From the sequence record OK570374: 64,000 bases of DNA; one strand, 5' to 3'. The notes under the pieces were generated by a model that ran no database searches, was not told where the DNA came from, and worked only from the letters and a program-made list of their open reading frames with translations. The DNA comes from Escherichia phage UoN_LG358_1. Every line of letters starts with the position of its first letter. Position 1 is the stretch's first letter. The position numbers were made by a program, and so were the translations under genes. Below, piece by piece: positions 3,675 to 30,422 of this stretch.

Positions 3675-5002
3675 AGCTCCTCCAAATCCTTCATAAACTC
3701 AACTTCCGGAGTGGTATCTTTCCAGTACTGATATTCTTTCTTAAGCTCTTTGGCAGCCTCTACGAGTTTTTTGGCTTCATCTGACGTGATGTGATAAATG
3801 TTCATACCAACCAATTTATCAATATGAGCCTTGAACAATTCAGTTTTCTCTAGTTCTGTTACAAGCTGCTTACGAGTTTTTCCTTGAATAACAATTTCGC
3901 CCGAAATCACTTGTTTGATGAATTGAGCTTTAGCTACTGCCAAGTTCAACTGAGTCAAAACGTCTTCACGCTTAAATTCAATTCGTTTTTCAACGAAAGT
4001 CTTACGGACTTCAACAAAATGTTTAATGAGTTCAGACGCTTTTTGAAACTTGTCGTTTAACTTGCCATTTTCGTCGATGACCACAATGAACTGTGAAAGT
4101 TTTTCAATTAATTTGAAATCTCGCATTACAGCATCATGTCGTTTATCTTCGTCTGCAGGTAACCCGTAATCTTTCTTGAATTTTACTTTAAAGCCAAAAC
4201 CGGATTTTGAACAGTCATCCGTATAAGTAATAAAACCTTTGTCTTCTAATGGGTCGAGTACTTTTTCAATGTAAGTATCGCGGTCAAATTTATATGGAAT
4301 TTCACTGATATACATCTGTGTAGCTGAAGTGAATTTATATACACCATGTAATTCAACCCCGCCGTCATCAGTTGGAACTATTTTGCCATTAAATTTTGGA
4401 AATTCAACTTCCGGCTCTTTATCAAGCTTTCCTTGCAAAGCGAGTTTAGTGCATTCTACAACTGACTTAAAACTGTGCGGAAGAATATTAGTTGCATATC
4501 CAGTAGCAATACCACGAACACCATTCAATAATACGGTAGGAATAACCGGAAGATAAAAAGCTGGTGGTGTATGTTCTTCGTCTTTGTGCTTTGGAGCAAT
4601 CTCTAAGTCTTTATAAACTTTACGGAAATTGTCAGAAATACGGCAAAAGATATAACGAGACGCGGCGGCTTTTTGTACTAAACGCGAACCAAAGTTACCT
4701 TGCCCGTCCAATAAAGGGAAATTGTTATTCCATGTATTAGCCATTAATGCCCCTGCGTCTTGAGCAGAGCCTTCACCATGATGATACCCTAAATCAGCTA
4801 CTCCGCCGGCGACTGATGCAAGCTTATGAAATTTTTCTTTATTACCTTTACTGAGGTCCAATGCTCGACGAATAACAAATCGCTGCACTGGTTTAAATCC
4901 GTCAATCATGTTAGGAATTGCACGATTTTCTACCGTGTAGATTGCGAATTCTTTAGCTTCAGTGTCAATAATACTTTGTAAACTTCTTTCATTTAATTGC
5001 AT
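3665..5002 (-). CDS. 52: DNA topoisomerase II medium subunit gp52 (GyrA-like)
   Basis: 445 aa from MQLNERSLQSIID; near-colinear with recalled T4 gp52 (YTVENRAIPNMIDGFKPVQRFVI, ADLGYHHGE.SAQDAGALMANTWNNNFPLLDGQGNFGSR); track start at 5020 is TTG, ATG with SD at 5002. Confidence 0.92.
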   Translation of the reverse strand: MQLNERSLQSIIDTEAKEFAIYTVENRAIPNMIDGFKPVQRFVIRRALDLSKGNKEKFHKLASVAGGVADLGYHHGEGSAQDAGALMANTWNNNFPLLDGQGNFGSRLVQKAAASRYIFCRISDNFRKVYKDLEIAPKHKDEEHTPPAFYLPVIPTVLLNGVRGIATGYATNILPHSFKSVVECTKLALQGKLDKEPEVEFPKFNGKIVPTDDGGVELHGVYKFTSATQMYISEIPYKFDRDTYIEKVLDPLEDKGFITYTDDCSKSGFGFKVKFKKDYGLPADEDKRHDAVMRDFKLIEKLSQFIVVIDENGKLNDKFQKASELIKHFVEVRKTFVEKRIEFKREDVLTQLNLAVAKAQFIKQVISGEIVIQGKTRKQLVTELEKTELFKAHIDKLVGMNIYHITSDEAKKLVEAAKELKKEYQYWKDTTPEVEFMKDLEELCE

Positions 5003-10399: not shown

Positions 10400-10603
10400 T
10401 TAATCTTGGTTACGCTTAATCAATTCTGCAACTTCTAGAAGTTCTTCTGCCGTTGCGGTGTTGTTTTGTATTTTAAACCGTATTTCCTTAAAGCGTTCTT
10501 TAAAATCTTCAGCTTCACTCATGTCAAAAAATCTTTGAATGATGCGGTACTCTTTATATACAGCGTCATCAAATAATACCATACAAACGTTAAAGCTTTT
10601 CAT
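10400..10603 (-). CDS. Hypothetical small protein (rIIA.1 position)
   Basis: 67-aa ORF directly upstream of rIIA. Confidence 0.5.
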   Translation of the reverse strand: MKSFNVCMVLFDDAVYKEYRIIQRFFDMSEAEDFKERFKEIRFKIQNNTATAEELLEVAELIKRNQD

Positions 10604-11112: not shown

Positions 11113-11640
11113 TTATTCACTCATCCAGACCTTGCGAGGAGCCGCATCATTACCCATAACCATTTCAAAAAGTTCTTTCCAATTTGGCGGCAATGACACT
11201 ACGTCATAAACCGGTTGCTGAATAACTCGTTCATATTCATCTTCTTCCAAAGAACCAAGTCCTTTGATGTAACGAAGTTTCCATCCAGCAAGTTTATCTT
11301 TTTCAGCTTCATATTCGGCGGCATTGTAATACCATTTTTGTTCAGAGCCCTTTGACATAATAATCACTGGGGTTTTAACAAACCGAATACGTCCTTCTTC
11401 GAACAATTTCGGCCAATTAGCAAAGAACGCTAGCAGGCTTGGATAAATTGACCCTGTGCCAAATATCTCTATTGTGAGGTATATCAATGATTAGCCCGAA
11501 GGCTAACCATCAACATCAGCATCAGTCATGATGGCAATGTTTTTATAATTCAAAGAAGAAGTTGATGTACGACGTACAATTGTCTGGGCTTTATATGATT
11601 TCATATCAATTTCAGTTTCTTTAACTTTAGCAAATTTCAT
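11113..11640 (-). CDS. 60: DNA topoisomerase II small subunit gp60 with an internal translational-bypass gap: codons 1-45 at 11506-11640, resumption at 11113-11457
   Basis: N-segment MKFAKVKETEIDMKSYKAQTIVRRTSTSSLNYKNIAIMTDADVDG ends in GGT followed by TAG; C-segment (T)GSIYPSLLAFFANWPKLFEEGRIRFVKTPVII... matches recalled T4 gp60 after the hop; combined 159 aa versus 160 in T4. Confidence 0.85.
11458..11505 (-). other. Untranslated coding gap of gene 60 (48 nt including the landing codon GGC)
   Basis: Take-off GGT (11506-11508) then UAG; hairpin UUAGCC-UUCG-GGCUAA (11491-11506); in-frame UAA; GAG 6 nt 5' of landing GGC (11458-11460). Confidence 0.6.
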
Positions 11641-12340
11641 TTAAAACCTCATAAAATTTTTCATCAGGAGTCCAACCGTTTTTAAACTGATTGAACGCGA
11701 TTTTGAACAGTTTCGTTTTGATAGTTATATTATTAACCGTTTTCCATTTAGCAATTCCGGTTTTCTTATAACTAACTGGGTCATAAACGTTAGCATACCA
11801 ATCATAAAGGGACGGAATCAACTTAACTGCGTCTGGATTGGTTTTAGATTTGTTATACCAAGGTTTAGATTTTTCAAGGGCGGCTGCTACTTTTGTAGCG
11901 TTTAACGTGTTACCAACTCCGCATAAACCAAGGTCCTTTATTAAAGGGTCGTCCGTTCTTAGTCTATAGGTTGTGTTATCTTTATCCTTGTAAACTCCGT
12001 ATCCTTTCACACCTTCAAATTTTCTTCCGTAATTTACGCCAACCCAATCTTCTTCAGTGTATTCGCCTTTCGTCAGTAATCGACATTCTCCAGTTTCTTT
12101 ATTTCTAAGTAAAATTTTGTCACGCATGAACTCAGCAGACCAATCTGAAATCATATTAACATAATTTTTCCTGGCTATTTCATAAAGTTTAGAACGAAAT
12201 ATTGTTCCAGAATTCATTATCCGGTTCAAAGCATAAGACATTTCTTTGTTTTTATGAATTTTAAACAATAACCAGTGCGCAATAAAATGTTCGCGATATG
12301 TCAATTTTACCAAATTATCTGAAGTATCTAATCCACCCAT
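11627..12340 (-). CDS. mobA: MobA-like HNH homing endonuclease between genes 39 and 60 (reading frame open upstream to the gene 39 stop codon)
   Basis: 237 aa from first ATG, beginning inside the HNH motif (GGLDTSDNLVKLTYREHFIAH); in-frame upstream codons encode ...EIHHILPRS with no stop back to the gene 39 UGA. Confidence 0.7.
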   Translation of the reverse strand: MGGLDTSDNLVKLTYREHFIAHWLLFKIHKNKEMSYALNRIMNSGTIFRSKLYEIARKNYVNMISDWSAEFMRDKILLRNKETGECRLLTKGEYTEEDWVGVNYGRKFEGVKGYGVYKDKDNTTYRLRTDDPLIKDLGLCGVGNTLNATKVAAALEKSKPWYNKSKTNPDAVKLIPSLYDWYANVYDPVSYKKTGIAKWKTVNNITIKTKLFKIAFNQFKNGWTPDEKFYEVLNEIC

Positions 12341-12421
12341 GCTTCTTGGAAGTATATGATGAATTTCTCCTTTAACCGGCGGAACCCTGGTTTTACCCCG
12401 GGAAATTAGTTTTTCTATAAT

Positions 12422-13975
12422 TCATACTAAGTCTTTTACTTTTTTCCAGACGCCATCAATAAAAATTTCGTCATTGATATTAACTACAATATCTTCACCG
12501 GCAACATTTACAGTATACCATTGTTCGCCGGCTTCAACTTCCGTGAATGGGTCTTCACCAATGACTAACCCAGTAATTGCACAAATATCAAAGATTTCTT
12601 TGTTTTTCAAAGCATCACCTGCAGACATTCCCCAGGTGTTCATCACTTTACCACGTAATGGATAACCGCCATGAAGGGCACGGTCACGAGTATTAATTAG
12701 ATAACCAATAGCAGAATCACCTTCTGTTAAAAACAAAGTTGTTTCTACTTTATCATTACCATATTCGCCAGCTTTGATGTGTTTATGAACTTTAGCTTTG
12801 GCCGCCTTTTTCGCTGCTTTGGTTTCTGCTGCTTTCTCTGCCGCTAGTTTACGTGCTAATGCAGCTTCAATAATCGGCATTAAAATAGCATCAGATTTCA
12901 TAATCTGATTAGAAATTTTCTTTGCATCGAGATTTAAGTGAGATTTAATTTCGCCCCATGGACTTGTAAGACGCTCTTTGGTTTGCGAGTCAAAGCGCAA
13001 GTTACTCATATCTCGAATAAACATCAACACAGTAAAACACTCTTTAATACGAGCTTTGTTTACTTCAATTTTGTGTTTACGTTTAATAGCCGGAATTAAT
13101 TCATTAGCAATTTCGTCAATAACATAATCAATATGCGAACCGCCATTCTTTGTATGAATGTTGTTAACATAAGTCATTTGACGAAAACCATCTGGAGAAT
13201 TACCTATAGCCAAAGAATAATTTTCTTCATCAATAATGATAGCATTTTTATCATACTGCTTAGAATATTTTTTGAAATTACTATCAACTTTTTTATTGTT
13301 AAATTTAAATTCAATTTTTGGATAAACGACTGCCAATGTCTGTAAACGGTCCAACATAATATCAAAATAAACATCATCAAAATTGTTCATTTCGAAATGG
13401 CTAAAATCTGGAATAAATTCTACCTTAGTTCCTTTATAAGAGGATTTTTTGGATTTCCAAGAAACATTGTCAGAATTATTGCTACAAGAAACTGTTAATT
13501 CATTTTCTCCATCAGATGTTGTACCTTTAAACATAACAGAGAAAATATTAGTCAATGAAGAACCAACACCGTTTTGCCCGCCAGTTTTACGCTCTTCATC
13601 AGCTCCAAAGTTTCCGCCTGCCTTAGTTTTCGTCCATGCTGCTACTGGACCAGGAATTTCTTCACCTTCAGGAGTAGTAACCATAGCCTGTGGAATTCCA
13701 CGGCCATTATCTTCTACGGTCACTTTGCTTGTGGAAGAATCGATATTGACTGAAATTTTATTAGCAAATTTAAAACTTGTACGGATAGCTTCATCAACAG
13801 AGTTATCGATAATTTCATCAATAAGTTTGAGAACGCCAGCTACGTATTGTACCCGCTTAAATTCGCCAAAAACAAAACGCTCATGAAATTCGTTAGATAC
13901 ACTTCCGATGTACATTCCAGGACGCTTAAGAACGTGTTCCTTGTCAGAGAGCATTTGAATTTTATTTTCAATCAT
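12422..13975 (-). CDS. 39: DNA topoisomerase II large subunit gp39 (GyrB-like ATPase)
   Basis: 517 aa; matches recalled T4 gp39 (GMYIGS, LIDEIIDNSVDE, VEDNGRGIPQAMV.TP.GEEIPGPVAAWT, GGNFG, GVGSSLTNIFSVMF, TEGDSAIGYLI). Confidence 0.92.
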   Translation of the reverse strand: MIENKIQMLSDKEHVLKRPGMYIGSVSNEFHERFVFGEFKRVQYVAGVLKLIDEIIDNSVDEAIRTSFKFANKISVNIDSSTSKVTVEDNGRGIPQAMVTTPEGEEIPGPVAAWTKTKAGGNFGADEERKTGGQNGVGSSLTNIFSVMFKGTTSDGENELTVSCSNNSDNVSWKSKKSSYKGTKVEFIPDFSHFEMNNFDDVYFDIMLDRLQTLAVVYPKIEFKFNNKKVDSNFKKYSKQYDKNAIIIDEENYSLAIGNSPDGFRQMTYVNNIHTKNGGSHIDYVIDEIANELIPAIKRKHKIEVNKARIKECFTVLMFIRDMSNLRFDSQTKERLTSPWGEIKSHLNLDAKKISNQIMKSDAILMPIIEAALARKLAAEKAAETKAAKKAAKAKVHKHIKAGEYGNDKVETTLFLTEGDSAIGYLINTRDRALHGGYPLRGKVMNTWGMSAGDALKNKEIFDICAITGLVIGEDPFTEVEAGEQWYTVNVAGEDIVVNINDEIFIDGVWKKVKDLV

Positions 13976-29589: not shown

Positions 29590-30422
29590 AGTGTCGGTTC
29601 AATCTCGCTAAATTTATGAAAAGCATCTGACTTCTGCTTTTTAGCAACACACATACGAAGTACTTTCAAAGGTTCATCAGTACCAAACATAGTTTTGGTT
29701 GGGTCACCTTCTGATTTCCACCGAGCTTGAGTTGGGAAGTCAGCATGAATTTTTTCCAGCGCTCTGTTCTGTTTAGCAGCATTACGCATAGATGATACAC
29801 CGCCTGGAGCTTGTCCTTTACCTGATTTAACGAGATATTTAAAAATCGCCAAATGAGGATAACCCATATTAATGAGTTTAAGAAACGCGTATGTATCTTC
29901 GGATAGGTCTACTATACCATATCCAATGTCATCGGCAGAAAGTTTGCTTAAATCATAAAAAGTATTTGTAAACCCGTAAGAGTTCTCACGGAAATGACCC
30001 CATTTAGAGTCAATCTTGAATATTGGCAAGCGAGCGTGACCATGATAAAAGCCGCAGTCCATCGCTGTTTCAACATAAAGACAAAGATTATTAAATTCAT
30101 CCCAGGTCATTCCAACATCATGGAGAATGCGCCGGTCATCTTTTTCGCGAATTTCCGTTGTATGAATAGTAGTATCATCATCCAACATCCAAATTCGTTG
30201 TCCTTGATACATTTCGGTGATTAAACGACGAGTACCAGCAATCCCATTTACATCATCCGGGATAGTTACTATTTTAGCAATTGTGCTATATCGAGTTTCG
30301 TATTCTTCTTTTTGAGACTCGCGAACTACAAGATGAGCGACATAACCTTCAGGGAACATGTCTAGGGCAGTAACTGCCCCGGCACGATTATAACTTGGAA
30401 TTACAAATTGAATCATTTCCAA
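29586..30422 (-). CDS. Putative nucleotide-sugar glycosyltransferase (GT-A-like motifs); candidate second DNA sugar transferase
   Basis: 278 aa; N-terminal FVIPSYNRAGA and WMLDDDT (DxD-like) motifs; translationally coupled between gene 42 (10-nt overlap) and beta-gt (ATGA overlap). Function inferred from motifs only. Confidence 0.4.
   Translation of the reverse strand: MEMIQFVIPSYNRAGAVTALDMFPEGYVAHLVVRESQKEEYETRYSTIAKIVTIPDDVNGIAGTRRLITEMYQGQRIWMLDDDTTIHTTEIREKDDRRILHDVGMTWDEFNNLCLYVETAMDCGFYHGHARLPIFKIDSKWGHFRENSYGFTNTFYDLSKLSADDIGYGIVDLSEDTYAFLKLINMGYPHLAIFKYLVKSGKGQAPGGVSSMRNAAKQNRALEKIHADFPTQARWKSEGDPTKTMFGTDEPLKVLRMCVAKKQKSDAFHKFSEIEPTL

Follow-up and report, generated by a model that had tools for sequence, protein, structure and literature searches.

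We analyzed a 64,000-nucleotide (nt) stretch of DNA from Escherichia phage UoN_LG358_1 (sequence record OK570374), hereafter termed the window, and in particular its positions 11113-13975, where an initial annotation had noticed a mobA-like HNH gene lying between genes 39 and 60 and sharing the frame of gene 39 across a single UGA. That layout was borne out, with all genes of this part of the window lying on the minus strand (Table 1). The locus holds a MobA mobile element, i.e. an HNH homing endonuclease gene (mobA) with a translational-bypass cassette, inserted in the gene for the topoisomerase II large subunit (Topo2L), as in phages T4 and S16. As is usual for MobA elements, the insertion splits the Topo2L gene into a first open reading frame (ORF; 13975-12422) that bears a C-terminal extension and a second (11640-11113) that bears an N-terminal extension.

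By megablast, the locus belongs to Gelderlandvirus, a genus of T4-like phages; UoN_LG358_1 is also given as a Gelderlandvirus (OK570374.1) in a 2026 paper. The whole 2.9 kb is covered with 98% identity in Salmonella phages S16, UTK0003, and AKM_NP4; in STP4-a, Melville, STML-198, and CGG4-1 only the flanks are matched and the topoisomerase gene is uninterrupted. STP4-a has a single topoisomerase gene of 1,827 nt, without the sequences found at window positions 12551-11558 and 11509-11462, and its flanks are 99.1-99.8% identical to those of the window, so that close relatives with an unoccupied target exist, MobA elements being characterized by uninterrupted relatives at 96-99% identity.

Locus architecture and the 11-bp deletion

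MobA elements measure 1,097-1,106 nt and encode a MobA of 269-279 amino acids (aa); the C-terminal extension of the topoisomerase fragment is described as being "in a different frame to MobA", with an overlap of 1-20 nt, and S16 is among the Salmonella cases (Manning & Atkins, bioRxiv 10.1101/2022.08.31.505936). S16 and AKM_NP4 carry such an intact, out-of-frame ORF, annotated as an 810-nt coding sequence (CDS) for a 269-aa homing endonuclease; its ATG lies in an ATGA overlap, so that its first 4 nt are also the last 4 nt of gene 39. The window retains both this ATG and the 4-nt overlap, but the ORF is broken.

The break was located by alignment with S16: 11 base pairs (bp) of the S16 sequence, GTTTGATATAT, are missing from the window directly 3' of ATG AAT TAT A. 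The deletion removes mobA codons S4-L5-I6-Y7 from a product whose N-terminus in S16 is MNYSLIYEKLISRGKTRVPPVKGEIHHILPRSMGG..., and it shifts the frame of everything that follows; read in the ancestral frame, mobA now terminates after 10 codons. A locus-wide alignment shows that the deletion is the sole difference from S16 between positions 12730 and 11609, a tract of 1,122 nt with zero substitutions that spans the gene 39 C-terminal extension, mobA in full, and the first part of gene 60, whereas the flanks of this tract differ from S16 by 1-8%.

The same deletion accounts for the frame that mobA shares with gene 39. Because 11 = 3×3 + 2, the mobA body was shifted by one position, and since the mobA ATG lies one nt upstream of the gene 39 stop codon, this shift places the body exactly in the gene 39 frame. 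No stop codon could intervene, because just two codons (ATT ATA) separate the gene 39 stop from the junction. The frame match is an arithmetical by-product of the deletion and not a recoding device. Past the TGA, the gene 39 frame reads IIEKLISRGKTRVPPVKGEIHHILPRS, 27 sense codons that run without a stop up to the first ATG at 12340, as the initial annotation had reported. A stop-free run of this length has a chance probability of ~0.12 at the local base composition and is unremarkable alone; what keeps it open here is its origin as residual coding sequence, which matches residues 8-32 of S16 MobA exactly.

The N-terminus eliminated by the deletion is the conserved MNYxxIY. The pattern M(N/D)YxxIYxxLI occurs in all 14 intact MobA relatives compared (44-61% identity), with Y3, I6, Y7, and L10 nearly invariant, and the MNY start is also found in S16, ELT1, and Pm5461. 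In these three phages mobA starts at ATG or GTG and overlaps the tail of gene 39 by 4 nt (S16), 23 nt (ELT1, of the T4 clade), or 14 nt (Proteus phage Pm5461), in every case out of frame; compared with them, only the window shows a frame offset of 0 between the two genes.

A 254-aa homolog (P0005; Logan contig SRR30397383_1256, 2457-2503) was considered as a natural short form of MobA and rejected, as its start had been mis-called at an internal ATG: the conserved start, GTG-NYSKIYNSLIKKRQ (GTG-NYSKIYNSLI), lies upstream of the called ATG and overlaps the end of gene 39. In the T4 record (NC_000866, ~3767-3800), the annotated mobA CDS (37 aa, MRGKTRV...) likewise begins at an internal GTG, with the family-conserved GTG AAT TAC (V/M-NYEKIYNDLIV) 12 codons upstream in the same frame, indicating that the annotated T4 fragment is shortened at its 5' end.

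Table 1 Features of the split topoisomerase locus in the window (positions of the 64,000-nt stretch).
Feature	Position	Strand	Description	Source
Gene 39	12422..13975	-	N-terminal part of topoisomerase II large subunit plus element-encoded C-terminal extension; 517 aa; stop TGA 12424-12422	ORF list; S16 and AKM_NP4 annotation of equivalent CDS
Remnant of true mobA 5' end	12393..12425	-	Ancestral start ATG 12425-12423 overlapping gene 39 stop (ATGA); 11-codon ORF, MNYRKTNFPG and stop TAA 12395-12393	
11-bp deletion junction	12415..12416	-	S16 carries GTTTGATATAT between the two bases; placement ambiguous by 1 nt	
mobA pseudogene body (very likely)	11627..12421	-	264 codons plus stop, in gene 39 frame; 100% identical to S16 MobA residues 8-269	
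AAGGAG	12367..12372	-	Within K-G-E codons; 2 nt upstream of ATT 12364	
HNH His-His codons	12361-12356	-	Upstream of ATG 12340	
Internal Met33 ATG	12340-12338	-	Opens 237-aa ORF ending at 11627	
Gene 60, first segment	11503..11640	-	45 aa; element-encoded N-terminal extension and homR; ends with take-off GGT 11508-11506 and UAG 11505-11503	
Translational bypass gap	11458..11505	-	48 nt, UAG through landing GGC 11460-11458; take-off hairpin	
Gene 60, second segment	11113..11457	-	114 aa, TGSIYPSLL...; resumption point after bypass	

The HNH domain and the fate of the endonuclease

The mobA body encodes an H-H...N...H motif (EIHHILPRSMGGLDTSDNLVKLTYREHFIAH) in which H26, H27, N41, H50, and H54 are invariant across the 14 relatives. 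Pfam HNH (PF01844) matches the EIHH...NLV segment weakly (14.6-14.7 bits, below the cut-off of 21.4), and no Pfam HNH match was obtained for the 237-aa product. A family profile aligns the HNH segment with solved HNH domains (6me0, 8ydb, and 6ghc; E = 0.0015-0.07), the structures matched including a group II intron maturase, Cas8f-HNH, and McrA. An AlphaFold model of a T4-clade MobA homolog (mean pLDDT, the predicted local distance difference test score, of 80) displays a helix (3-16), a β-strand carrying EIHH (24-27), a second β-strand (42-45), and a helix carrying REHFxAH (47-61), which amounts to a predicted ββα-metal core behind a confidently modeled N-terminal helix. A Foldseek comparison of the model with the PDB gave HNH domains as the best matches, all weak and local (E of at least 0.43) and none significant.

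As the initial annotation had pointed out, the catalytic histidines are encoded upstream of the first AUG, and this AUG falls inside the HNH motif. It specifies the Met of PRSMGG, which is invariant in every MobA clade, and is not a start. Catalysis by HNH nucleases relies on the His-His pair for the general base and a metal ligand, and a product initiated at Met33, in which the pair is missing, would therefore be catalytically dead.

We consider it very likely that the locus is a recently frameshifted MobA homing-endonuclease pseudogene, which arose through an 11-bp deletion after the third codon. The ancestral mobA started at the ATG of the ATGA overlap, and the loss of 11 bp just past codon 3, a very recent event that would have inactivated the gene, left the remaining 264 codons, catalytic His-His included, without a start codon and by chance in frame with gene 39. 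Endonuclease would be made in small amounts at most, if at all, and anything translated from ATG 12340 would be devoid of the N-terminal helix and strand β1 as well as of both ββα-metal histidines. The phage is presumably viable without MobA, given that neither the split topoisomerase nor the bypass would need it, as in T4 and in SEA1, another Gelderlandvirus; such a stage would be the degeneration that homing endonucleases are expected to undergo after fixation in a genome. The initial annotation had offered an N-terminally truncated, probably inactive remnant as its fallback, which was essentially correct. Both the identity of the gene and its status as a remnant were thus recognized, but the frameshifting deletion that caused it and the ATG at 12425-12423 were overlooked.

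Some observations weigh against this conclusion. No substitution has followed the deletion, and the ratio of nonsynonymous to synonymous changes (dN/dS) accordingly carries no signal of relaxed selection. The remaining ORF of 264 codons is fully open, so that read-through, +1 slippage, or non-AUG initiation might permit expression at a trace level. Furthermore, the deletion rests on a single assembly, and the 237-aa ORF has been deposited only once (UFK27132.1, phage UoN_LG358_1). Searches of viral, genome, and metagenome contigs with the exact deletion junction and with a gapped pattern for both alleles returned no match, the junction of neither allele being present there, and an exact-protein look-up of the 237-aa ORF in contigs found nothing. 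Should a product bearing KTRVPPVKGEIHHILPR occur in infected cells at a level like that of S16 MobA, the gene could not be considered inactivated.

The single occurrence of the deletion allele in public data also bears on whether the deletion is genuine. An error of assembly or sequencing, in which case the real phage would have an intact 269-aa mobA and the 11-bp gap would belong to a draft record, strikes us as improbable. In its favor, OK570374 is incomplete (136,254 bp, compared with ~160 kb in the genus), and the remainder of the element is identical to that of S16. However, the loss of 11 bp from a sequence that is neither repetitive nor homopolymeric is atypical of sequencing errors, and the 1.1 kb around the deletion are free of errors relative to S16.

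Possible expression of the remnant

Translation might still be rescued at a low level and provide some active nuclease, which we judge very unlikely. The ORF body has remained intact, and the geometry permits three routes. The first is a +1 slippage of peptidyl-tRNA-Gly at the end of the short ancestral frame, CCG GGG UAA A (12401-12392), to yield MNYRKTNFPG-KTRV...; the slip from GGG to GGU retains two G-C pairs with a stop codon in the A site, and fits the "shifty stop" principle (reviewed in PMC5009743). The second is read-through of the gene 39 UGA to give a gp39-MobA fusion, and the third is initiation at AUU 12364.

The latter two routes correspond to those by which the initial annotation had envisaged a full-length endonuclease, and neither is supported. 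A designed read-through fusion was rejected, since the frame match occurs in this genome only and results arithmetically from the deletion; intact relatives are out of frame. An internal Shine-Dalgarno sequence serving a non-AUG start was rejected as well. AAGGAG is present, but at 12372-12367 and not at 12365-12370 as first reported, and its spacing of 2 nt from the AUU is too close. The motif derives from K-G-E codons that read AAA GGA GAA in the S16 clade, AAG GGT GAA in T4 and ELT1, and GAA GGC GAA in Pm5461; it is therefore absent from the other clades, and is a coincidental Shine-Dalgarno look-alike created by the codon choice of the S16 clade. The ATG at 12340, being the invariant Met of the motif, offers no alternative start.

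Other evidence speaks against all three routes. Past the junction, the sequence does not differ from the normal coding region of S16, no stimulator having evolved, and an Rfam scan of the window retrieved no family. A tRNA search of the window found none, so that no suppressor is supplied from there. I6 and Y7, two nearly invariant residues of the N-terminal helix, would be missing from every rescued product, and the whole helix and most of β1 from one initiated at AUU. The likeness to programmed recoding, such as the RF2-type +1 shifty stop or UGA read-through fusions, is superficial: an ORF continues past a single UGA, and GGG UAA ends a short ORF one nt out of frame. Recoded genes are expected to keep their arrangement in relatives and to carry a dedicated stimulatory signal such as a correctly spaced SD-like element, a downstream structure, or a suppressor tRNA, whereas the window arrangement, made by a recent deletion, is found in no relative (mobA of S16, AKM_NP4, ELT1, Pm5461, and T4 is out of frame and has its own ATG or GTG) and contains no stimulatory element.

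We give very little credence to the idea that the 237-aa protein is made from ATG 12340 and fulfills a nuclease-independent role, e.g. in target-site DNA binding or regulation. Its ORF is open and has been deposited as a hypothetical protein, and its last ~200 residues, which presumably bind DNA, are undamaged and modeled with high confidence. Nevertheless, this ATG encodes an invariant internal Met, is preceded by just AAGAAG at a spacing of 1 nt, and lies in a predicted local hairpin; moreover, a deletion followed by zero substitutions is too recent for a new function to have been selected. It would be equally far-fetched to regard the deletion as a "savior indel" that throttles a mildly harmful endonuclease to a trace level, with residual synthesis through +1 slippage at CCG GGG UAA A or through read-through of the UGA, by which the HNH nuclease would be joined to the topoisomerase subunit gp39. 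The element would, if this were true, stay mobile at low cost.

Recent frameshifting of mobA thus remains the preferred explanation, and the appropriate annotation for UFK27132.1, a 237-aa "hypothetical protein", is that of a frameshifted MobA homing-endonuclease pseudogene. The value of the locus lies mainly in this annotation and in the clean natural example that it provides; no new recoding mechanism is revealed.

Relatives, decay, and the bypass cassette

The window shares with S16 (homing endonuclease gp3, YP_007501046.1) the insertion site, the C- and N-terminal extensions, a 48-nt bypass with GGU/GGC codons, and the 1,122 identical nt; it differs by the loss of 11 bp after mobA codon 3, which breaks the 269-aa ORF, by six substitutions in gene 60, and by its STP4-a-like backbone. 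The six substitutions are transitions in the N-terminal extension of gene 60 (11608-11524), all separated by multiples of 3 nt. Outside the locus the window is ~99.8% identical to STP4-a. Between positions 10600 and 14500 it is a mosaic, in which a backbone like that of STP4-a is joined to a MobA element that, together with ~180 nt upstream of the insert boundary, is identical to that of S16. This mosaic looks as though an S16-like donor had recently contributed the element by homing or co-conversion; because of the six substitutions on the 3' side, the donor was not S16 itself.

Loss of MobA function has precedents. Pseudogenization is documented in laboratory T4, KARL-1, and Aes012, as is total loss of the gene from other genomes that keep the bypass. 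In T4, whose mobA pseudogene comprises T4p005 plus 60.1, the RefSeq record labels mobA a "defective DNA endonuclease"; as in the window, pseudogenization of the endonuclease has left the split topoisomerase and the bypass in place. The lesions differ, since T4 retains its GTG-NYEKIY start and the HNH His-His pair and is broken downstream, after NLVK, whereas the window is damaged at the extreme 5' end. SEA1 has the same split 39 and 60 genes, and its bypass gap is identical, but nearly the whole mobA ORF (~727 nt) is gone, with ~48 nt left between the genes (2085-2134); it represents a later stage of decay.

Gelderlandvirus thereby gains a fourth state in a series that comprises the empty site (STP4-a), the intact element (S16), a freshly frameshifted one (the window), and one from which mobA has been deleted while the split and the bypass are kept (SEA1). 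The series illustrates the cycle of invasion and decay already proposed for MobA and the gene 60 bypass cassette, and what has happened to MobA here is an unexceptional stage in the decay already known for this selfish element. According to the account of Bonocora et al. (2011) given by Manning & Atkins (2022), nicking of the empty site and homing in mixed infection are known only for T4-clade MobA; for the allele of the window, its sequence leads us to expect neither nicking nor homing.

The 14 nt at the 3' end of mobA overlap the first segment of gene 60, which ends in the bypass characteristic of MobA elements, where a single tRNA decodes matching take-off and landing codons: the take-off GGT is followed by TAG and a hairpin of -15.4 kcal/mol, and the 48-nt gap leads to the landing GGC. 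A gap of this length keeps the reading frame, and it contains two in-frame stops, TAG and TAA. In T4, by contrast, the gap is 50 nt long, changes the frame, and is bounded by GGA/GGA. The gap of the window is identical to those of S16 and SEA1 and is absent from STP4-a; S16 has been listed with GGU/GGC as its take-off and landing codons (Manning & Atkins 2022, bioRxiv 10.1101/2022.08.31.505936).

Elsewhere in the window, between positions 30000 and 50000, STP4-a covers just 96% of the sequence, in two pieces, despite an identity of 99.8%. Relatives have several homing endonucleases annotated in this region, suggesting that it may harbor further presence/absence polymorphisms of mobile endonuclease genes.

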